Shown in pieces: positions 1,805 through 17,201 of a DNA stretch of 64,000 bases. The position numbers and the translations under genes are program-made. The first letter of the stretch is position 1. Every line of letters begins with the position of its first letter. Source of the stretch: an uncultured Elusimicrobia bacterium. GTDB taxonomy: Bacteria; Elusimicrobiota; Elusimicrobia; Elusimicrobiales; UBA9959. Under the pieces are notes generated by a model. That model did no database searches, had not been told where the DNA came from, and saw only the letters and a list, made by a program, of their open reading frames with translations. The stretch spans positions 1,608-65,607 of the forward strand of contig CAIXBR010000122.1 in NCBI GenBank assembly GCA_903917735.1. Direction: 5' to 3'.

Positions 1805-3310
1805 ATGAACAGCATGAAAAATATAGTTCTGAAATGCGCGGCGTTATTCCTTTTTATTATTGTGCTCGGGCGTGCCGCGGCCCCGGTGTACGCGCTGGAA
1901 CCTGCCGCGCCGCAGGTGACCGTTTCGGTGGACCCCCGCGTTGAGCTCATGGCCATCATCTTCCGGCTGGCCGGCAATAAAGAATATAACGATAGCTACA
2001 TACCGTCCTACGCGCGGGACGTGGACGAGCATTTTGCGCCGTTCAAAGACCATCCCGTGGTTAAACTGGCCGCCGAGCTTAAAAAAACGCGGGGCATCGG
2101 TTACGACGGCCCCATGACGCTGGCCATACACATTACGGATACGGTGTCCCTTGGCGAAAGGGTCCCTTTCTCCCCGCAGCCCGAAGCGCTGGATTCCAGG
2201 TGGACCCCTGCGAAGGCGCGCGAGTTCCTGGCCCTGGCGCGCGATTTCGTAAAGCTGACCGGGTTCAATGATTTTTACGCCCGGCATCAGCCTTTGTACG
2301 ACATAGCGGTACAGCGCATGCAGGCGGTGCTTGATAAGAACGCGCACCTGGAGTGGTTCGACAGCTTCTTTGGCCCCAGAACGGAGACGCATTTCCGGCT
2401 GGTGCTCGGCATGGTCAACGGCGGCAACAGCTATGGCCCCAAGATAGCGCTGCCGGACGGGCGCGAAGAGATGTATTCCGTGCTTGGCGTATGGAGAATT
2501 GACGCCCAAGGGCAGCCGGAGTTCGATCCGGGGGTTGTCTCAACTGTGGCGCACGAGTTCACCCACTCCTATGCCAATCCGATGGTGGACCGGTTCGCTA
2601 AAGGGCTGCGGGCTTCCGGAGAGAAGCTTTACGGCCTTGTGCCGCAGGAAATGGCCGCGCAGGCGTACAGCAACTGGAAGACCTTGATGTGCGAATCCTT
2701 AGTTCGTGCCTGCGTATTGCGTTACCAGCTGGATAACTACGGGCCTGAGGCCATGAATAAAGCGGCGAACTACGAGAACTCGCGCAGTTTCTACTGGGTT
2801 TCGGGATTGGCCGACCTGCTTGGCAAATACGAAGCCAAGCCCCGCGCGTATAAGGGCCTGCCCGAATTCTTTCCGCAGATAATAAACTACTTCAACGATT
2901 ATGCCAAGACCGCCGGCGCCACGATAGGGGCGATAAAGGCTAAAGCCAGGGCCGACCAGGAGAAGAGGAAAAAAGATATTCTGTCCTGGAGGGAGACCGG
3001 GCCGAAGATAGTCGCAATGGCGCCCGCCGACGGGGCTAGGGATGTCCCGCCGGACCTGAAAGCTATAGTTATTACATTTGACCGCCCGATGAGCCAGAGC
3101 TGGTCCGTAGTGGATTTAAGCTCTGGGCATTATCCTAAGACCACCGGAGCGGCCGGCTATGACGCCGCGCAGAAAGTTTTTACGCTGCCGGTAGAACTGC
3201 TGCCCGGAAAGGACTATGTTCTGGGCCTGAATAGCGAGGACTATAACAACTTCAAAAGCACGGGAAATATTCCGTTGTTTCCGGTAATATATAAATTTAA
3301 AACCAAATGA
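1805..3310 (+). CDS. Secreted HExxH putative metallopeptidase (DUF4932-like) with C-terminal Ig-like domain
   Basis: Track ORF 1715..3310. Start moved to ATG 1805: GGGGAG lies 5 nt upstream, and this start yields the signal peptide MNSMKNIVLKCAALFLFIIVLGRAAAPVYA. HExxH motif VAHEFTHSY. The C-terminal ~100 aa resemble an SbsA-type Ig-like domain (APADGARDVPPDLKAIVITFDRPM). A paralog lies at 39319..41091. Confidence 0.65.
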   Translation: MNSMKNIVLKCAALFLFIIVLGRAAAPVYALEPAAPQVTVSVDPRVELMAIIFRLAGNKEYNDSYIPSYARDVDEHFAPFKDHPVVKLAAELKKTRGIGYDGPMTLAIHITDTVSLGERVPFSPQPEALDSRWTPAKAREFLALARDFVKLTGFNDFYARHQPLYDIAVQRMQAVLDKNAHLEWFDSFFGPRTETHFRLVLGMVNGGNSYGPKIALPDGREEMYSVLGVWRIDAQGQPEFDPGVVSTVAHEFTHSYANPMVDRFAKGLRASGEKLYGLVPQEMAAQAYSNWKTLMCESLVRACVLRYQLDNYGPEAMNKAANYENSRSFYWVSGLADLLGKYEAKPRAYKGLPEFFPQIINYFNDYAKTAGATIGAIKAKARADQEKRKKDILSWRETGPKIVAMAPADGARDVPPDLKAIVITFDRPMSQSWSVVDLSSGHYPKTTGAAGYDAAQKVFTLPVELLPGKDYVLGLNSEDYNNFKSTGNIPLFPVIYKFKTK

Positions 3311-5670: not shown

Positions 5671-6966
5671 ATGTCCGACAAGAACACCGCTTTATTCTGC
5701 CTTGAAAGCCTGAAGAAAGCCGGCGCCGACAAGGCCCAGTGCGTGCTGGTCAACACCGAGAAGAACGAGCTGAACGTGGACGCGGACAAGATCTCGCTGA
5801 TGCGCACCAGCTACAACACCAACATCAGGTTCACGGCCATAAAGGACGGCCGCAGGGGCTCTTCCTCCCTTAACGGCTTTCTGAAGCCGGATATCGAGCG
5901 CGTGGCAGCCTCGGCGGTAGAGAACGCCAAGGCCTCTCCCGCCGATCCGGCCTATGACATCGCGCCGCGCCAGCCGGCCAAGGTCTTCGACAATAAAATA
6001 GTGACGCCGGACCTGGACGCCATGTACGACAGGCTCTCCACGCTGCTGGCGCAAGCCCGCGTTAAGTATCCGCTGCTGAAGCTTTCGCAGGCCATACTCA
6101 ACTTCAACCGCAGAATGGAGTATTTCCTGAACTCGAACGGGGTGGATTTCACTTCCAATTCCGGGTATTACGACGCTTTCGTCTTCTTCCTGTCCCAGGA
6201 TGGTAAAAAGACCTCCTCGTTCAATTATTCCATGTACACGGCCAGGGACATGAAGAAAGAAATAATAGACACGGTCTCCATAGACACGCTGTTCCGCCAG
6301 TCGGCCGAGCAACTGAACACCAGGCCCCTGGAGGGCAAGTTCGAGGGGGAGATCATAGTCACCCCGGTCTGCTTAATAAACTTCCTGCAGTTCATCACCA
6401 CGATGGCCATACGCGACGCGTCCCTTATCTCCGGCAGCAGTGTTTATAAGGATAAACTCGGGAAGCAGATAGCTTCCCAGGCCTTTACCCTGCGCTCCAA
6501 GCCGGTCTCGGACGAGATAGTGGACGGCTATTACGTGACCCCGGACGGTTTCGAGGCCGAGAACACGACCATAATAGAGAAAGGCGTTCTGAAGACCTTC
6601 CTGCTTAGTCTATACGGCGCCAACAAGACCGGCCTGCCGCGCGTCTCCAACACAGCCGGCTGCGACGTGATAGAGCCGGGCGATAAAACGCTTGAAGAGC
6701 TGGCCGCCCCGATAAAGAAAGGCCTGCTGGTCGCGCGCGTGTCCGGCAATAATCCCACCGAGGGCGGGGACTTCTCAGGAGTGGCCAAGAACAGTTACTA
6801 CATAGAGAACGGCAAGATACTCTATCCCGTCAGCGAGACCATGATCTCCTGCAATATCCCCAAAATGTTCATGGACATAAAGGGCATATCCAGGGAGCGG
6901 GTGCATTTCGGCAATTCCGTCTACCCGTGGATCTCATTCGGCGGGGTGACGGTGTCCGGAAAATAA
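5671..6966 (+). CDS. pmbA: PmbA/TldE-family protein (TldD partner)
   Basis: PmbA_TldD-family layout without the HExxxH site. C-terminal GDFSGVAKNSYYIENGK-type motif. Translationally coupled to tldD. Confidence 0.8.
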   Translation: MSDKNTALFCLESLKKAGADKAQCVLVNTEKNELNVDADKISLMRTSYNTNIRFTAIKDGRRGSSSLNGFLKPDIERVAASAVENAKASPADPAYDIAPRQPAKVFDNKIVTPDLDAMYDRLSTLLAQARVKYPLLKLSQAILNFNRRMEYFLNSNGVDFTSNSGYYDAFVFFLSQDGKKTSSFNYSMYTARDMKKEIIDTVSIDTLFRQSAEQLNTRPLEGKFEGEIIVTPVCLINFLQFITTMAIRDASLISGSSVYKDKLGKQIASQAFTLRSKPVSDEIVDGYYVTPDGFEAENTTIIEKGVLKTFLLSLYGANKTGLPRVSNTAGCDVIEPGDKTLEELAAPIKKGLLVARVSGNNPTEGGDFSGVAKNSYYIENGKILYPVSETMISCNIPKMFMDIKGISRERVHFGNSVYPWISFGGVTVSGK

Positions 6967-11892: not shown

Positions 11893-13743
11893 GTGAAACC
11901 CGAAGAAATCCTTAAAAAACGCTGGGGCTACGACACCTTCAAGCCCCTGCAGAAAGAGGCCATAGAAGCGGCGCTCTCCGGGCGTGACTGTCTGGTGGTG
12001 CTGCCCACCGGCGGCGGAAAAAGCCTCTGCTACCAGTTGCCCGCGGCCATGGGCAAAGGCCTTGTGCTGGTGGTTTCGCCCCTGATAGCCCTGATGGACG
12101 ACCAGGTGGCCGCGGCGCGTGAAGCGGGGCTGGCCGCCGATGCCCTGCATTCCAATCTGAAGGCCGGTCCCAAAAAAGAAGTCTACGCTAATTTAAACAA
12201 TGGGACCACGGAGCTGCTCTACGTAAGTCCCGAGCGCCTGCTTACCGGCGACCTTTACGGAACTATCGCCCCGCGCGTAATACTGGCCGCCGTGGACGAG
12301 GCGCACTGCGTTTCCCACTGGGGGCACGAGTTCCGCCCCGAGTACCGCCGCCTCACCGAGGCGCTGGACCTTTTTCCCAAGGCCGCGCGGATGGCCCTTA
12401 CCGCCACCGCCACGCCCATAGTGCAGGAAGACATCCGTACCCAGTTGGCCCTGCGTTCCCCTGAAATTTTAATAGGCCACCCGGACCGGCCCAACCTCGT
12501 CTACCGCGCCTTCCCGCGCCGGGACCAGCTGAAGCAGGTGCTGGAGGTAGTGCGCGCCCACAAGGGCGAGGGCGGCATAGTTTACGCCCAGACCCGCAAA
12601 GACGTGGAGCGCCTGGCCGCGGGCTTGAAAAAGGACGGCGTCTCCAGCGCCCCGTACCACGCCGGCCTCAACGCCGAGGATCGGCGGAAGGCGCAGGACG
12701 ATTTCGTCAACGAGCGGCTGGACGTGATAGTGGCCACCATAGCTTTCGGCATGGGCATAGACCGCTCCAACGTGCGCTACGTGGTGCACGCCAACACGCC
12801 GCGCTCGGTGGAGCATTACCAGCAGGAGAGCGGCCGCGCCGGGCGCGACGGCCTGCCGGCGGACTGCACTCTTTTCTTTTCCGCCGCCGACCTGGCCACC
12901 CACCGCTGGATGGCCAAAAAGGAAATGCTCAGCGCCGAGCGCCTGCGCGCGCTGGAAAAACAGCTGCGCGACATTGGCCGCTTCGCGGTGGCCCCGGTGT
13001 GCCGGCACAGCCAGCTGGCCGGGCATTTCAGCGCGCCTTACCCCGTGGAGCCCCAGGCCGAAGAAGGCTGCGGTGCCTGCGACGTGTGCCTGGGCGAGAC
13101 CAGAGGCCTGTCGGACGAAGAGGCGCGGCTGACCGCGAAAAAAGTTCTGAGCGCCGCCTGGCGCGCCGAGGGCCGCTACGGCACCGGCTATGTGGTTAAT
13201 CTGCTGCTGGGCCGCATCAACGACCGTATGACCGCCAATGGCCACGACCAGATGAAGGTTTTCGGCCTGCTGAAAGAGGCGGGGGAGCCTGCGGTGCGCT
13301 CCTGGATAGATCAGCTGATAGTGCAGGACTACCTGGAAGTGACGGAAGACAACGAATATCCGCTGCTGCGCATTACCGCCGGGGGCCGCGCTCTCTGCCA
13401 GGACAAGGGCACGGTGCGGCTTGGCCTGCCCATGCCGCCCAAGGCCGGCAAGAAAAAAGCCAAAGTATTCAAGAAAGCGGAGAAAGCCGGGCTGGATTTC
13501 CAGGAAGCCGATCGTGACCTGTTCGAAAAGCTGCGCGCCCTGCGCCGCAGCGTGGCCGACAAAGCCGGCATACCGCCCTACGTCATCTGCCACGACACCG
13601 TGCTTATAGAAATGGCCTCTACAAAGCCGCAAACTCCTGAGGCCCTGCTGGCGATAAAAGGCATGGGCGACAAGCGCGTGCAGAAATACGGCCAGCTCTT
13701 CCTGGACGCCATAGCAGGCCGGCTGGAGCTCCCGCAGAGTTGA
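11893..13743 (+). CDS. recQ: ATP-dependent DNA helicase RecQ
   Basis: GTG start. Motifs VLPTGGGKSLCYQLPA, DEAHCVSHWGHEFRPEY, the RecQ zinc-binding Cys cluster (CRHSQ...CGACDVC) and a C-terminal HRDC-like region (DRDLFEKLRALRRSVADKAGIPPYVICHDTVLIEMA). Confidence 0.9.
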   Translation: MKPEEILKKRWGYDTFKPLQKEAIEAALSGRDCLVVLPTGGGKSLCYQLPAAMGKGLVLVVSPLIALMDDQVAAAREAGLAADALHSNLKAGPKKEVYANLNNGTTELLYVSPERLLTGDLYGTIAPRVILAAVDEAHCVSHWGHEFRPEYRRLTEALDLFPKAARMALTATATPIVQEDIRTQLALRSPEILIGHPDRPNLVYRAFPRRDQLKQVLEVVRAHKGEGGIVYAQTRKDVERLAAGLKKDGVSSAPYHAGLNAEDRRKAQDDFVNERLDVIVATIAFGMGIDRSNVRYVVHANTPRSVEHYQQESGRAGRDGLPADCTLFFSAADLATHRWMAKKEMLSAERLRALEKQLRDIGRFAVAPVCRHSQLAGHFSAPYPVEPQAEEGCGACDVCLGETRGLSDEEARLTAKKVLSAAWRAEGRYGTGYVVNLLLGRINDRMTANGHDQMKVFGLLKEAGEPAVRSWIDQLIVQDYLEVTEDNEYPLLRITAGGRALCQDKGTVRLGLPMPPKAGKKKAKVFKKAEKAGLDFQEADRDLFEKLRALRRSVADKAGIPPYVICHDTVLIEMASTKPQTPEALLAIKGMGDKRVQKYGQLFLDAIAGRLELPQS

Positions 13744-13821: not shown

Positions 13822-14667
13822 ATGAGAGCCTTTAAAAACGTGTTTAAGAGCGGCCTGGCTTTGTCCGCGGCCCTTTTTTTTGTAAACAGCGCAAAAGCGG
13901 CGGACCTCTCATTCGATAATTCTTCCGGCAGTATGTCCCTGCTTGAAACGGTCCGCTCCGTTGAGCTTCCCGTAGTGCCCCTGCCCCGCCTTTCCGCGGC
14001 CGCCGCCATTCCCGGAGCGCATGTCTACAACTTCAGCGCTCTTTATTCCTCACTGGGCTATCCGTCCCCGGACTTTTTCGGCTCCAGCGAGCAGGAAGTG
14101 CAGGACCTGGAAACTTATACCAGTAAGGAAGATACTTTCTACAAGGAGATAAACGACTATCTCCGCTATTATCCCAAGCCCTACGACTGGTCCGGCACTT
14201 CCCCGGCTGCCGCCAAAATCATGGTAAAGAACATTGACCGCGTTTTCAGCAGAGTGCCGGCCCTCCCGGCCGACCTTGTTTTGTTCCGCGGCCTATCCTT
14301 GAAATACCACGGCAATAAGCCCTATGAGACGGGAGAGGAATTTACCGATAAAGGCTATGCTTCAACTTCGGTGTCCTATAAAGTGGCCCGCTATTTCGCC
14401 GTAGAGATGGACAGTGATGGAACTGCCGGCGACCGCAAGGCTATCTTTGCCATCTACCTGGGCCGCCCTGGGGTAAAGGGCGTACTGATCGACGAACAGG
14501 AGGATGAGGTCATCCTGAAGCATGGTACCAGGTTCAGGGTGATGGGGAAAAAGGATGACGTTAAGAAGTACGATCTTTACCTGGTGCAGGCCTGCGCGGC
14601 CTCCTGTGAAACAGTTCTAAAAAAAGACGCCGCGGATTTCTGGGCGGGTTTTACCGTGCAGGATTAA
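13822..14667 (+). CDS. Secreted ADP-ribosyltransferase, R-S-ExE class (C3/VIP2/iota-like exoenzyme fold)
   Basis: Sec signal peptide (MRAFKNVFKSGLALSAALFFVNSAKA). Catalytic triad motifs occur in canonical order and spacing: LVLFRG (Arg), GYASTSVS (STS), EQEDEVIL (ExE). Confidence 0.8.
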   Translation: MRAFKNVFKSGLALSAALFFVNSAKAADLSFDNSSGSMSLLETVRSVELPVVPLPRLSAAAAIPGAHVYNFSALYSSLGYPSPDFFGSSEQEVQDLETYTSKEDTFYKEINDYLRYYPKPYDWSGTSPAAAKIMVKNIDRVFSRVPALPADLVLFRGLSLKYHGNKPYETGEEFTDKGYASTSVSYKVARYFAVEMDSDGTAGDRKAIFAIYLGRPGVKGVLIDEQEDEVILKHGTRFRVMGKKDDVKKYDLYLVQACAASCETVLKKDAADFWAGFTVQD

Positions 14668-14749
14668 AAATATTTAAAGGCGCAGCGCGATTTATCCGAA
14701 GTAAAAACTCCTCCGGCATAAATATCCCGAAAATATTTTTTATTACCCC

Positions 14750-14778
14750 TTGACAAGTCAAGGTACTGCTGTTATACT
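14750..14778 (+). promoter_or_regulatory. Near-consensus sigma70 promoter
   Basis: TTGACA (14750-14755), a 17-nt spacer, then TATACT (14773-14778). The flank is AT-rich, and no protein gene follows. Confidence 0.7.
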
Positions 14779-14784
14779 CGGTAT

Positions 14785-15200
14785 GTAGTCTTGATCTCTT
14801 ACAAATGCGTCGCAAGTGTAGTCGAGGTGCTCTCGGTGGTGTGCGGTGGAGCTGTTCTCGGCCAGCGTTTTCAGTCAGCGGGTTCTGCCCGCACCGACGC
14901 GGTTTTTCCCGGTTCGCGGCCAGCTAGGTTTCGGTGTTAATGCTGTAGTGCGGTCGCTGGCGCGCGTTCTGTGGGTTTTTCCCCGGTCCGTCTCCCGCCC
15001 TTTAGGGCGGCGCGGTTTGCCGGGGCCCTGGTTAGGCGGTCCGCCTTCGGCGGCTTGCTGCCGGGTGGGTGTTCCGGCCCTTGGTCTTCGGCGCTAATGC
15101 GCCACTCGGTTCTCCGGCTCGCCCCTTGTGGTTGCGGTAGAAAAGTACCCTGGCCTGTGTGCCAATTGAAGAGCCCCCGTCCGCGGGGGCTCTCAATTTT
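14785..15200 (+). ncRNA. Candidate large structured non-coding RNA, unclassified (~415 nt)
   Basis: Bounded by the promoter above and a strong terminator. G+C-rich and A-poor on the + strand. Multiple local hairpins. No credible ORF on either strand. No match by eye to tmRNA, RNase P, SRP or 6S signatures. Confidence 0.6.
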
Positions 15201-15202
15201 AT
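15170..15202 (+). terminator. Rho-independent terminator
   Basis: 10-bp stem AGAGCCCCCG / CGGGGGCTCT with loop TCCG, followed by CAATTTTAT. Confidence 0.7.
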
Positions 15203-15221
15203 GACGAGTTGTCGATGGATA

Positions 15222-15333
15222 GGGGGGCGGCGAGGGGGTGCCCTGGAGCCGCTTTGGGGAGCGGGGCCCCGTTTCGGGGGAACCGCGCAACGGTTCCTGC
15301 GCGGCGGAATGGGCACCCCCTTGCCGCCCCTCC
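15222..15333 (+). ncRNA. Second structured element: ~22-bp closing helix around a multi-hairpin core (class unknown, strand tentative)
   Basis: GGGGGGCGGCGAGGGGGTGCCC (15222-15243) pairs with GGGCACCCCCTTGCCGCCCCTC (15311-15332). The interior contains hairpins CCCCG-TTT-CGGGG and GAACCG-CGCAA-CGGTTC. Confidence 0.45.
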
Positions 15334-15367
15334 GATTTATTTTCAGACGCGTCTAAATAAAAATAAA

Positions 15368-15398
15368 GAGCCCTCTCAGCGAGGGGCCTTTTATTTGT
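15368..15398. terminator. Possible bidirectional terminator between the RNA locus and the amidase gene
   Basis: Imperfect GC stem (GCCCTC / GAGGGG), flanked by TTTTATTT on the + strand and an A/T-run on the - strand. Confidence 0.45.
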
Positions 15399-15410
15399 CA
15401 CGGGTGAATT

Positions 15411-16199
15411 TTAGCGGGGCTGGTATTGCTGGATGCCGGCGGCTATGGCCTGGGCCATTTTTTCCTGGCCCGCGTCGGATTTTATGAAGGCGGCGTCGTT
15501 CTTGTTGGTGAGTACCACCATTTCTATGGTGATGGTGGGGATCTGCGAGAAGATGGAAAATGTCAGCGCGCCCTGGGTGGAACCTACCTGCGTGCGCGAA
15601 TCGCCGAATAAGCCACGGGAAGGCATTACTCCGGCCAGCTGAGTTCTCATGGCGCCGCTCATCATGCCGCCGAAATCCTGGCTGGTCTGCATCACTTCTT
15701 TTGACGGGCCCTTGAAGCCGTTGTCCGGGTCGTCTTTGTAATCATGTGTGCCGATGCGGTCCGGATAGTAGATGGCGAAGCCGCTGCCGGGGGTGCTTTC
15801 ACAGTGCAGGTGCACGGCCAGAGCGGCGCCAGCTCGGTTGCATATCAGCGCCCGGTCCTTGTTCTCCACGTACTGCATCTCCGCGGACTTGGTCATCACC
15901 ACTTCAAAGCCTTTTTCCTTAAGGATACGTTCAAGCCTCTGGGATACCTGCCAGTTTATGTGGTTCTCATTGGTGCCGTTCACCATGTCGGTGGCGGCGT
16001 TGAAAGTGTTGGGGTGGCCGGGGTCCACGCAGATCAGATTGGGGTTGACCACGGCCTGCGGAGCCGGCGGCATTGGCAGGGGCGCGTCTGCCGCTTTTAT
16101 GCCTGTGGCGGAAGCGGGGAGGCCTGCCCAGTCGGCGTGAGCGGGCGGCAAAAAGCCCAGTGCAAGGGCGGCCGCGAAGATGAATATAAGGTGGTTCAT
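15411..16199 (-). CDS. N-acetylmuramoyl-L-alanine amidase (Amidase_3 family), secreted
   Basis: Signal peptide. Amidase_3 metal-site motifs CVDPGHP, ENHINW, AVHLHCES. Typical length. Confidence 0.85.
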   Translation of the reverse strand: MNHLIFIFAAALALGFLPPAHADWAGLPASATGIKAADAPLPMPPAPQAVVNPNLICVDPGHPNTFNAATDMVNGTNENHINWQVSQRLERILKEKGFEVVMTKSAEMQYVENKDRALICNRAGAALAVHLHCESTPGSGFAIYYPDRIGTHDYKDDPDNGFKGPSKEVMQTSQDFGGMMSGAMRTQLAGVMPSRGLFGDSRTQVGSTQGALTFSIFSQIPTITIEMVVLTNKNDAAFIKSDAGQEKMAQAIAAGIQQYQPR

Positions 16200-16319: not shown

Positions 16320-17201
16320 TCAGGGGATAGTGAACTGGCCGCCGTACGGGTTTACGGTTACCGGCCCGGAGAAATCCATATTGCCAGAGGCGCAGATGGC
16401 CAGCATGGCGTCGGCCCTGCCTACGGACTCGGCCCAGGCCGCGCTGGTGGCCGGGTCGCTGGCATGCGCAAGGGTAGCCTTGCGTATTTTCAGGAATTTG
16501 TTAAGCCAGGCCTTTTCATCCCCGCCGGCCGAGGGCGGTTTTACGGCCTTGGAGACTTTCTTTATCATGGCGCCCAGGCCGTCCGGATCGCTCCCGGTGC
16601 CGTGCTGTATGGCCGCTTCGTACAGGGCTACCTTCGAAAAGTCACGCCGCAGGCCAAGCTGCGCGGAGTAATTCAGCGCAGGCCGGTAGTATAAGTCGTC
16701 TGAAACGGCGTCCTGCGCCTCGCAAAAAAGTTTATCCTGTGCAGCCAGCTGCCACGCCTTCGGGAAGCCCTCCAGGCCTTTGGTGGAATCGCTGGAGAGT
16801 CCGGCCAGTTCCTTCAGGCGGGGGAGGTATTTCGCCAGGGGGGCGTTCGGCTTGATATTTATGTACCGCTCTACCACCAGTAGCAGATCCCCGCAGCCGG
16901 AACAAAAGCCGGCGCGCCCCGCCGTATACCCCCTCCCGTCGCCGAGGTCCTCTATGTAGCCGTACTGCGGCTCAAGCGCGGAGTTCTCGAAAATACTGAT
17001 GAGCATGTCGGCGCGTTTCTTCTGCGCCGGGCTCAAACCGGGCTCATTGGCCGCCGGTTTTAGTATGGCGGCCGGGTTTCCCGCTTCCGGCGCTTTAATG
17101 TCGCCGGCGATGGCTGTTGCCTGCAGCCAGGTCTGTCCTTGCGAGGGGACCGCCGCCAACACTAAGAGCGGGATAAGGAAATATAACCGGAAATTTAACA
17201 T
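16320..17201 (-). CDS. GH46 chitosanase, secreted
   Basis: Signal peptide. Aligns closely along its length with remembered Streptomyces N174 chitosanase blocks (FENS...YGYIEDLGDGRGYTAGRAGFCSGCGDLL; AKYLP; GGDEKAWLNKFL). Confidence 0.85.
   Translation of the reverse strand: MLNFRLYFLIPLLVLAAVPSQGQTWLQATAIAGDIKAPEAGNPAAILKPAANEPGLSPAQKKRADMLISIFENSALEPQYGYIEDLGDGRGYTAGRAGFCSGCGDLLLVVERYINIKPNAPLAKYLPRLKELAGLSSDSTKGLEGFPKAWQLAAQDKLFCEAQDAVSDDLYYRPALNYSAQLGLRRDFSKVALYEAAIQHGTGSDPDGLGAMIKKVSKAVKPPSAGGDEKAWLNKFLKIRKATLAHASDPATSAAWAESVGRADAMLAICASGNMDFSGPVTVNPYGGQFTIP

Follow-up and report, generated by a model that had tools for sequence, protein, structure and literature searches.

What is encoded by a stretch of DNA that opens with a near-perfect promoter, closes with a terminator and in between lacks both a recognisable gene and almost all adenine? 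The question arises from a locus of an uncultured Elusimicrobia bacterium, a member of the Elusimicrobiota, which are almost entirely uncultivated. We analysed a 64-kb stretch of its DNA (contig CAIXBR010000122.1; hereafter the window), in which the unit of interest, body and flanking signals included, occupies positions 14750-15200 of the + strand. A first reading of the letters alone (the original prediction) had proposed a non-coding + strand RNA of unrecognised class running from promoter to terminator, and homologues, structure, the pattern of insertions and deletions (indels) and a comparison with Rfam have borne this out. We are highly confident that the unit is a genuine, independent gene for a structured non-coding RNA (ncRNA) of about 415 nt. 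It belongs to a new, lineage-restricted, multi-copy RNA family of uncultivated Elusimicrobiota, which is undescribed within the literature searched. The kind of gene is a familiar one, a stand-alone bacterial ncRNA probably of the sponge or regulator type, while the sequence family, its architecture and its exclusion of adenosine are not familiar.

The unit begins with a sigma70-type promoter at 14750-14778 (+), in which a 17-nt spacer separates the -35 element TTGACA (14750-14755) from the -10 element TATACT (14773-14778); 11 of 12 positions match and a TG lies ahead of the -10 element. The extended -35 region falls within the palindrome ACCCC TTGAC AA GTCAA GG and widens the feature to 14746-14778. 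The promoter was invariant in the first five homologues. About 410 nt downstream, an intrinsic terminator (15165-15200) is formed by a 10-bp stem (15170-15179/15184-15193) with eight G-C pairs and the loop UCCG, followed by CAATTTTAT; the stem can be extended by AAUUG/CAAUU to 15165-15198, and the U tract lies at 15197-15200. Both signals named in the original prediction are thus present. The same is true of the predicted depletion of A on the + strand: in a scan of the whole window with sliding 300-nt segments, A fell to 5.3% (segment starting at 14826) compared to a mean of 23.4% (standard deviation 4.5%), the fourteen segments poorest in A all overlap the unit, and the next lowest value elsewhere is 13.7%. 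As the lowest T content anywhere in the scan is 12.3%, the depletion is an outlier on either strand. Within the unit, the AT skew reaches -0.73. The expected jump in G+C is seen against the immediate upstream flank (0.62-0.665 inside the unit versus 0.415-0.49), but compared to the window average of 55% the unit is only moderately enriched.

Relatives of the unit were collected by way of the neighbouring gene, which codes for an ADP-ribosyltransferase (ART). Contigs encoding ART relatives were fetched and searched with the unit using nhmmer, and the family was enlarged by scanning a genome collection with the promoter 17-mer and metagenomes with a promoter-plus-leader pattern. Fetched loci are designated by L-numbers (L008 is JGI contig Ga0079306_1000104, L006 is GCA_030651035.1). 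This yielded 44 distinct homologous units, with promoter and terminator kept, from Elusimicrobia or Elusimicrobiota metagenome-assembled genomes (MAGs), from MAGs labelled only 'bacterium' and from unbinned contigs; among 2.9 million viral contigs, the promoter-plus-leader pattern had no match. The units are 237-627 nt long, typically 380-510 nt, with a mean composition of 7.3% A, 32.5% C, 35.3% G and 24.9% U. An alignment of five sequences with their flanks is near-invariant from ACCCCTTGACAAGTCAAGG...TATACT to the terminator and loses similarity immediately outside, the limits of conservation lying just upstream of the -35 element and at the terminator U tract. Genomes carry one to three or more copies: L006 has one, L008 has three full-length copies dispersed within 7 kb beside Amidase_3, ART and GH46 genes, L035 and L039 hold tandem pairs, and two subtypes occur in one MAG (JBFXJL01: L039 and L064). 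The 237-nt variant, L132, consists of leader, GGU-rich body and 3' module only. The window unit is one member of this multi-copy family and no singleton. In some loci, the terminator 3' half, together with 30-50 nt, is repeated in tandem one to three more times directly after the RNA terminator (L006 ~3099-3170, L074 ~6040-6190, L140, L141, L147); they may reflect slippage or recombination at the RNA 3' end.

The gene recQ is the immediate upstream neighbour of the unit in L058, L106 and L085, and in L095 and L119 a single gene intervenes; the RecQ proteins of these five loci are 81-90% identical to that of the window. In L058, the order RecQ-RNA-amidase-VF530 equals that of the window minus ART and GH46. 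Other units come after recQ, TldD/PmbA-like or unrelated genes, and the genes downstream vary between loci. Nucleotide identity of the RNA to the window copy is 74-84% in L058, L095, L106 and L119 and 62% in L085, while the adjoining recQ genes share 80-85%. Since the two are comparable, the family fits vertical descent and not recent spread.

Open reading frames (ORFs) are found in all six frames of the unit, because every stop codon contains A and T and an A-free strand and its complement are thus without stops. Indels argue that none of these frames is a gene: in 78 pairs of relatives with at least 80% identity, indel lengths modulo 3 left remainders of 1, 2 and 0 in 512, 186 and 126 cases, and as 85% are therefore not multiples of three, the unit is non-coding. 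Length differences between members stem from a 25-nt hairpin, a 19-nt block and pentamer arrays, the body has neither ATG nor a Shine-Dalgarno site, and a search of 5.8 billion proteins with the antisense shadow ORF returned only three. The view that the ORFs of both strands are shadows without protein-like character was thus correct. The strand can be told from conserved pairs rich in G-U: 14991-15012 is U-G in 36 of 42 sequences, and in a MAFFT alignment of 42 sequences 15029-15063 is C-G in 21 and U-G in 19, and 14982-15024 is C-G in 27 and U-G in 15. Such pairs would be A-C mismatches on the opposite strand and, together with the orientation of promoter and terminator, place the RNA on the + strand. 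Folding of the single sequence gave z-scores of -2.7 (+ strand) and -4.5 (- strand), a measure that does not identify the strand. The excess of G and U had been taken as a trace of G-U pairing; G-U pairs specific to the + strand do exist, but the excess mainly mirrors A avoidance with U/C-rich unpaired positions.

For the structure, we combined RNAalifold, pairing probabilities averaged over 42 singly folded members and inspection of alignments. A covariance model was built for domains 3-5 and 45 matches were realigned to it, which biases this alignment in favour of the model; the MAFFT alignment, covering the entire RNA (42 sequences), served as an independent check, and slid partners and shuffles as pairing controls. 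A naive covariation scan that counted G-U as paired was useless since, with little but G, C and U in play, nearly every G column 'pairs' with every pyrimidine column; it was dropped and replaced by the averaged pairing probabilities and explicit counts with controls. In the model-fitted alignment, 93.8% of the cells of the core (domains 3-5) pair versus 36-55% with slid partners, and two-sided changes were counted in 11 pairs and 31 cells, compared to 4.3 and 5.9 in shuffles and 3-7 and 6-17 with slid partners. In the MAFFT alignment, 84.7% of the cells of the whole-RNA model are paired versus 43-54% with slid partners, and 100 cells are changed on both sides versus 44 in shuffles; two other counts, of pairs with two-sided change (25) and of pair types, do not rise above the controls there. 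Covariation among homologues is thus above controls on the model-fitted alignment and in part on the MAFFT alignment. The helices are kept through compensatory and G-U-compatible changes, and support for a structured RNA is solid, not overwhelming.

The RNA starts with a single-stranded 5' leader (14785-14806), the first nucleotide being predicted at about 14785-14787 from the position of the -10 element. Domain 1 (14807-14900) is closed by P1 (14807-14812/14895-14900), whose middle pair is C-G in 17, U-A in 12 and U-G in 6 of 42 sequences. It encloses small hairpins variable in number (e.g. 14822-14834, 14849-14859 and 14878-14892), and its interior varies in length by the presence or absence of a 25-nt hairpin. 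The modelled hairpin at 14878-14892 is poorly supported (44% of cells paired, MAFFT). A long-range pairing originally proposed between 14841-14846 and 14889-14894 is not conserved; it competes with the modelled hairpin, and relatives such as L008 lack the complementary segment. Domain 2 (14908-14975) has a variable interior framed by P2 (CCC 14908-14910/GGG 14973-14975 and CGCG 14915-14918/CGCG 14963-14966), which RNAalifold predicted on 20 close relatives; its support is moderate (77-95% of cells pair), and CCCCGG/CGGGG is changed to CCCAGG/CCUGGG in L106 and the L074/L100 group.

The core follows. Domain 3 (14981-15025) is a long hairpin of P3 (14981-14986/15020-15025), P4 (14988-14991/15012-15015) and P5 (14995-15000/15005-15010) with the loop UUUA; its averaged pairing probabilities lie at 0.5-0.8, pairs form in 94-95% of cells, and four of the six P5 pairs change on both sides in the model-based alignment. 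Domain 4 (15027-15065) comprises P6 (15027-15031/15061-15065), a 3-bp middle helix (15035-15037/15057-15059) and P7 (15041-15045/15049-15053, loop UUC). P6 pairs in 99.5% of cells, with one pair being C-G in 24 and U-G in 20, and the outer pair of P7 is C-G in 31 and G-C in 6. Domain 5 (15067-15124) is built from P8a (GGGUG 15067-15071/CGCCC 15120-15124), P8b (CCGG 15074-15077/CCGG 15114-15117) and an apical hairpin at 15090-15103 (GGCGC-UAAU-GCGCC). P8b pairs in 94% of cells with two covarying pairs; P8a has an averaged pairing probability of 0.31-0.35 and is changed to GAGUG/CGCUC in L008b, L008c, L058 and L131. Of the three local hairpins noted in the original prediction, those at 14995-15010 and 15041-15053 are conserved with compensatory changes, whereas that at 15090-15103 is present in an apical region that is variable among relatives. 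A terminator-like alternative hairpin (15061-15064/15074-15077) was not used, as it competes with P6 and P8b, which the averaged pairing probabilities favour. Two internal direct repeats, GGUUUUUCCC(C)GGU and CGRCGCGGUUU, occur twice each, suggesting that the RNA may have grown by duplication of modules.

Downstream of domain 5, a single-stranded tail (15125-15150) passes from the GGU-rich, (GCRGUY)n-like UUGUGGUUGCGGU to AGAAAAGUAC at 15139-15148, the sole A-rich stretch of the RNA; relatives carry CGCGGUCGCAGUCGCGGUACAAACUAAAGUA or similar at this position. No consistent pairing partner of the tail emerged from the averaged pairing probabilities of 42 members, and no conserved complementarity between the 5' leader and the A-rich linker was seen by eye. 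A small hairpin (15151-15164, UGGC-CUGUGU-GCCA) precedes the terminator; its GGC/GCC is invariant in 42 sequences, and its closing pair is U-A in 19, C-G in 8 and U-G in 5. The terminator stem GAGCC(C/U)CC/GGGGGCUC is near-identical in all aligned members while its loop varies, the loop-closing pair covarying between G-C (28) and U-A (9). In about 1 Mb of fetched loci this stem motif was found only once outside the units. The conservation and near family-uniqueness of the stem make it probable that it has a role beyond transcription termination. The single extra stem (GAAGAGCCCCCG...CGGGGGCUCUUC; L129 5062-5083) is a bidirectional terminator between two genes on the contig of unit L085.

Is this a known RNA in disguise? 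A scan with cmscan against Rfam 15 (4227 families) gave no match at gathering score in the whole window; at relaxed E-value, 14500-15500 showed chance-level matches only, the best overlapping the unit being RNAI with 17 bits versus a threshold of 47, and nine other units in six loci had no overlapping match at E<=1. ARAGORN found no transfer RNA or transfer-messenger RNA (tmRNA). The unit therefore belongs to no known class in Rfam, and the earlier failure to see signatures of tmRNA, RNase P, signal recognition particle or 6S RNA was justified. So was the exclusion of a riboswitch or leader for lack of a + strand gene to regulate: the unit ends in a terminator, the next gene (Amidase_3, 15411-16199) is convergent on the - strand, and downstream genes differ among loci. 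A literature search with Elusimicrobia and RNA terms found no description of such an RNA or of Elusimicrobia regulatory RNAs.

Several known RNAs share features with the family. CsrB/CsrC and RsmX/Y/Z (RF00018, RF00166 clan) are likewise stand-alone genes with own promoter, intrinsic terminator, many hairpins and a repeated short G-rich motif, with paralogues per genome that differ in length and motif number and with loops under little constraint. In contrast, their GGA (ANGGA) motif is impossible in a near A-free body, in which CGGU, GCGGU and GGUUC are enriched instead, and the five ordered domains of the family are far more conserved. By cmscan, none of the units scanned matched CsrB/RsmZ, a weak PrrB/RsmZ match (L008 8621-8759, E = 0.7) lying outside the RNA, and tblastn with E. 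coli CsrA found no match in the window or in the Elusimicrobiota loci, which cover only genome fragments. RNAIII of Staphylococcus aureus and other multi-hairpin base-pairing regulators resemble the unit in their length of several hundred nt, own promoter and terminator, chain of hairpins and pyrimidine-rich unpaired regions; unlike RNAIII, the unit has no conserved UCCC-type loop motif, no embedded peptide gene and no sequence similarity to it, and it stems from another phylum. With OLE, GOLLD, ROOL, HEARO and raiA it shares large size, lineage restriction, strong conservation, discovery by comparison and an initially unknown function. These RNAs have ordinary base composition and A-dependent tertiary motifs, whereas A is nearly excluded here, and their Rfam models gave no match. 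ToxI of type III toxin-antitoxin systems is also a non-coding RNA unit beside a gene annotated as toxin, but it consists of tandem 36-nt repeats upstream of the toxin in one operon, while the present RNA lies downstream, has its own promoter and lacks tandem repeats, and the 'toxin' is a secreted ART whose adjacency is not conserved.

An unusual trait is the composition. A makes up about 7% of the whole RNA and about 5% of its body; in the predicted structures 67% of body positions are paired, and those left unpaired consist of 47.5% U, 28% C, 18.5% G and 5.7% A. In RNase P RNA and a cyclic di-GMP (c-di-GMP) riboswitch from Elusimicrobia MAGs in the fetched loci, A amounts to 19-20% and U to about 10%; hence, A avoidance is specific to this RNA family. 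GNRA loops, A-minor contacts, K-turns and T-loops all depend on A, and an RNA that cannot form them is unlikely to fold into a compact ribozyme or aptamer. We know of no described structured RNA with a comparably A-poor composition. Measured against dinucleotide-preserving shuffles and given as ratios, CGGU (2.6x), GCGGU (3.7x) and GGUUC (3x) are enriched, GGG and GGGG are depleted 2-3x, and a GGU-to-GGU spacing of 5 nt is enriched 5.3x. TRF identified period-5 GGUCU arrays of 4.6-8.6 copies in L035 and L041; the (GGUCU)n array of L041 aligns to the stretch of domain 1, the GGUCU/GGUUC arrays of L035 align to that of domain 2, and L148 has a GU-rich, (GU)n-like stretch.

A further conserved element lies in the leader, which holds GUAGUC followed by the BoxA-like GAUCUCUUACA at 14793-14803. 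The consensus of 42 leaders is UGUAGUCYUG-N-UCUYU-NNA, with G, UCU and U nearly invariant. Compared to the gamma-proteobacterial boxA consensus GYTCTTTAANA (PMC5725501), which may not be that of Elusimicrobiota, the window leader GATCTCTTACA matches at 8 of 11 positions, and GATCTTTAAAG of L100 and GCTCTCTAAAT of L035 match at 9 of 11 each. Reminiscent of the BoxA/Nus leaders of ribosomal RNA (rRNA) operons, suhB and CRISPR arrays, G-N-UCU-Y-U-...A stands about 10 nt into a long untranslated transcript; unlike in these, position 2 is often A in the family and positions 6, 8 and 9 deviate. An Elusimicrobiota rRNA operon was sought among the fetched loci without success, the sole 16S gene lying in a Bacteroidota locus. 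The resemblance suggests that a long untranslated transcript may here be subject to antitermination by Nus factors.

But, why should a bacterium keep several copies of a long RNA that nearly does without one of the four letters? Tentatively, we favour a multivalent, trans-acting binding platform, i.e. a sponge or scaffold, as the constraint extends across the entire molecule, from composition and reiterated motifs to copy number, expandable tracts and the reduced variant L132, and is not focused on one seed or pocket. Transcription from the near-consensus sigma70-type promoter would supply large amounts of RNA, with the transcript possibly Nus-protected via the BoxA-like leader; the sharing of this promoter with signal-peptide proteins and other small RNAs fits a strong promoter. 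The body forms a string of five G+C-rich hairpin domains with U/C-rich, almost A-free unpaired positions, and is followed by a short A-rich linker, a small hairpin and the terminator with its conserved stem. The RNA would act in trans on a putative RNA-binding factor that recognises the reiterated YGGU(Y) or pyrimidine-rich elements, and its valency could be set through the number of gene copies and through the lengthening or shortening of (GGUYY)n tracts in the regions aligned with domains 1 and 2. Avoidance of A may keep the RNA untranslatable (no AUG, no GGAGG), deny it the usual tertiary motifs that need A and leave RNases or binders that depend on A with a poor substrate. If the unit is indeed a sponge or scaffold, it points to a new RNA-binding partner and regulatory circuit in Elusimicrobiota.

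A number of observations speak against this interpretation or weaken it. The 5' and 3' ends of the transcript are predicted from sequence only, and the boxA match of 8-9 in 11 positions is to the consensus of another phylum. Covariation is moderate, with many of the core pairs invariant and the highest counts obtained on the model-fitted alignment, while z-scores of motif enrichment are inflated because the family sequences are related. The window copy (14700-15250) has no detected tandem repeats, including a long (GGUYY)n tract. In most GGU motifs, the predicted structures place the GG in pairs and leave just the U unpaired, so much of the GGU enrichment reflects helix ends (CCGG, then U) and not exposed motifs. 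Queries with RRM, CspA, Hfq, CsrA and NusB by tblastn returned nothing relevant in about 1 Mb of fetched loci, which are small parts of genomes. Finally, known sponge RNAs get by with less than a well-conserved fold of five domains.

The points raised against a sponge or scaffold invite comparison with other modes of action. A base-pairing riboregulator of the RNAIII type or of the type of Hfq-dependent small RNAs is a possible, though rather doubtful, alternative, in which accessible segments (the A-rich linker 15139-15148 beside the 3' hairpins, the conserved GCGGUUUCCCCCGGUUCGCGG or the U/C-rich loops) would pair with purine-rich messenger RNA sites such as Shine-Dalgarno sequences and the remainder would be a stable scaffold. 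It would account for the stand-alone unit with promoter and terminator, the multi-hairpin architecture, pyrimidine-rich unpaired positions complementary to purine-rich ribosome-binding sites, and a 3' module of A-rich single strand, small hairpin and terminator with U tail that is kept in all subtypes. However, of the loops only the U/C-rich character is conserved and not the sequence, the A-rich linker differs by subgroup (AGAAAAGUAC, ACAAACUAAAGUA, or absent in the L041 group), and a seed-type regulator needs no global compositional constraint, variable repeat tracts or multiple copies. We consider it improbable that the RNA is a self-associating structural molecule, whose palindromic CC(C)GG strands and GG-N3-GG tracts would engage in intermolecular pairing or two-tier G-quadruplexes and yield multimers or condensates as scaffold or store. 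The interchangeable CCCGG/CCGGG-type strands of P2, P3, P6 and P8b, the internal direct repeats as a sign of reiterated modules, the fivefold enrichment of GG tracts with 3-nt spacers at avoidance of GGG runs and the lack of A, which by what is known of A-minor contacts, GNRA loops and K-turns would rule out the usual tertiary contacts, are compatible with it. This case is drawn purely from the letters, though; the hairpins formed within one molecule are local and favoured by thermodynamics, RNA quadruplexes of two tiers are weak, and many members including the window copy lack long (GGUYY)n tracts.

Three further explanations are largely excluded by distribution, end structure and indel data. 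A selfish or mobile repeat, such as a promoter-terminator cassette resembling a miniature inverted-repeat transposable element, or a DNA-level element with a functionless transcript, is very unlikely. Dispersed and tandem copies occur within genomes, and partial duplications of the terminator 3' half follow the unit in some loci; yet there are neither terminal inverted repeats nor flanking direct repeats (inverted repeats are confined to the terminator and to an A+T-rich pair that lies wholly ahead of the promoter), the place after recQ is kept among genomes whose RecQ proteins share 81-90% of their amino acids, the RNA has diverged similarly to or more than neighbouring recQ, compensatory changes and strand-specific G-U pairs maintain the helices, and viral contigs gave no match. 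Scarcely any more credible is that the unit belongs to the ART gene, be it as 3' untranslated region or as RNA antitoxin or regulator in a type III toxin-antitoxin-like arrangement. The unit does follow the ART stop codon at a distance of 83 nt and on the same strand, no terminator-like site having been reported for the interval, and the order ART-then-RNA recurs in L006 and L008. But the window, L006 and L008 are the only unit-bearing loci with an adjoining ART; in L085 the ART gene lies about 3.4 kb upstream of the RNA, beyond recQ, the majority of units lack a nearby ART, units elsewhere being preceded by recQ, TldD/PmbA-like or unrelated genes, and nhmmer found no RNA unit in the ART orthologue loci L003-L005 and L009-L011. 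Moreover, the RNA has its own conserved promoter and no ToxI-like tandem repeats, and an ART with signal peptide and exoenzyme-type motifs would act outside the cell. We thus take the adjacency as an accident of a rearranging neighbourhood with no functional link. Least plausible by far is an unusual protein, read either from a sense ORF without A, which could hold only the residues F, L, S, C, W, P, R, V, A and G, or from a T-free antisense ORF. Stop-free frames are long on both strands and gene callers occasionally call the antisense ORF (L008 2442-2813; three database proteins), but such frames are automatic where A (or T, on the other strand) is lacking, the shadow ORF is almost without relatives, the body offers no start or Shine-Dalgarno site, and indels, including the 25-nt and 19-nt blocks and the pentamer arrays, disregard the reading frame.

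Returning to the favoured sponge or scaffold, a broader and still speculative idea is that the unit founds a class of RNAs whose defining trait is that adenosine is all but excluded: abundant, possibly Nus-protected RNAs of G-C and G-U helices with pyrimidine loops, a principle that would be new for bacterial RNAs. Members may serve as sponges for a GU- or pyrimidine-specific RNA-binding protein or for Rho, as self-assembling scaffolds, or as RNAs made to outlast, during stress, ribonucleases specific for A (toxins or CRISPR-ancillary RNases). Most large RNAs rely on A-minor, GNRA or K-turn contacts; one that folds with no adenosine therefore puts to the test what RNA can do with only three letters. 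On a low-GC Elusimicrobiota contig (L071 407-690), the same promoter and a similar GUAGU...UGUUGUUUUGA leader precede a predicted G/U-rich, C-poor transcript of about 240 nt with a terminator. It may mirror the A-poor RNA in composition, homology not being established, and hints that a property rather than a sequence is conserved across the phylum.

The unit lies in a neighbourhood of RecQ helicase (11893-13743, +), ART (PF03496; 13822-14667, +), the convergent Amidase_3 gene (15411-16199, -) and a GH46 chitosanase gene (16320-17201, -); its location directly 3' of the ART gene was correctly described at the outset. With its cleavable-looking signal peptide (MRAFKNVFKSGLALSAALFFVNSAKA/AD) and its motifs of R / STS / ExE type (LFRG / YASTS / EQEDEV), the ART is of the secreted exoenzyme type, and its gene is grouped with those of a secreted amidase and the GH46 chitosanase. 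About 100 relatives were found, and nearly all of those with a source name come from Elusimicrobia or Elusimicrobiota MAGs; a genome scan with the ART protein gave no confirmed relative, the homologues having come from the protein database and contig look-ups. Between the terminator of the unit and that of the amidase gene (15371-15385), there is a G+C-rich long hairpin of about 128 nt (15209-15336); the segment 15201-15345 that holds it is very stable (-95.5 kcal/mol). No copy of this hairpin turned up in the rest of the window or in the fetched loci, which sets it apart from the family unit.

The promoter of the unit, in the form CCCTTGACAAGTCAAGG-N9-TAYAMT, precedes several gene types in other Elusimicrobia loci. 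It stands ahead of genes for signal-peptide proteins (L028, L030, L032, L037, L038, L040, L081, L096, L098), ahead of a conserved hairpin leader with an ORF beginning MIKFQTKKSK (L068, L070, L117, L123, L124) and ahead of c-di-GMP-I riboswitches matched by Rfam (L049 3593-3666 (-), L076 5620-5698 (-)); a riboswitch-like leader behind it in L115 (~2912+) was recognised by eye only. In L055 (2146+), L087 (4807+), L089, L102 (7285+) and L116 (1936+), the promoter is followed by a conserved, separately terminated unit of about 90 nt (GGACGCC.GCAAA..GGCCUCCAA.UGUGAACUCC...GCGAAAACCCGCCAAAAGCGGGUUUUCG), which had no Rfam match at gathering score in L055, L087, L089 and L116 and looks like a second undescribed small RNA. 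The shared promoter is a phylum-typical module that fits a strong or co-regulated class and possibly marks a regulon, and one may speculate that the palindrome TTGAC-AA-GTCAA, which overlaps the -35 element and the spacer, is an operator. For the annotation of Elusimicrobiota genomes, the palindromic -35 promoter and the further small-RNA candidates should be useful. Outside the phylum, the 17-mer CCCTTGACAAGTCAAGG occurs within a conserved G+C-rich repeat of about 75 bp that is scattered over low-GC rumen 'Rickettsiales' MAGs (L015, L016, L023, L044, L072 and others), inside another dispersed repeat in Desulfamplus/Desulfobacterales (L025, L066, L078, L092, L012) and in a promoter-like site in Oscillospiraceae (L027, L079, L088, L104).

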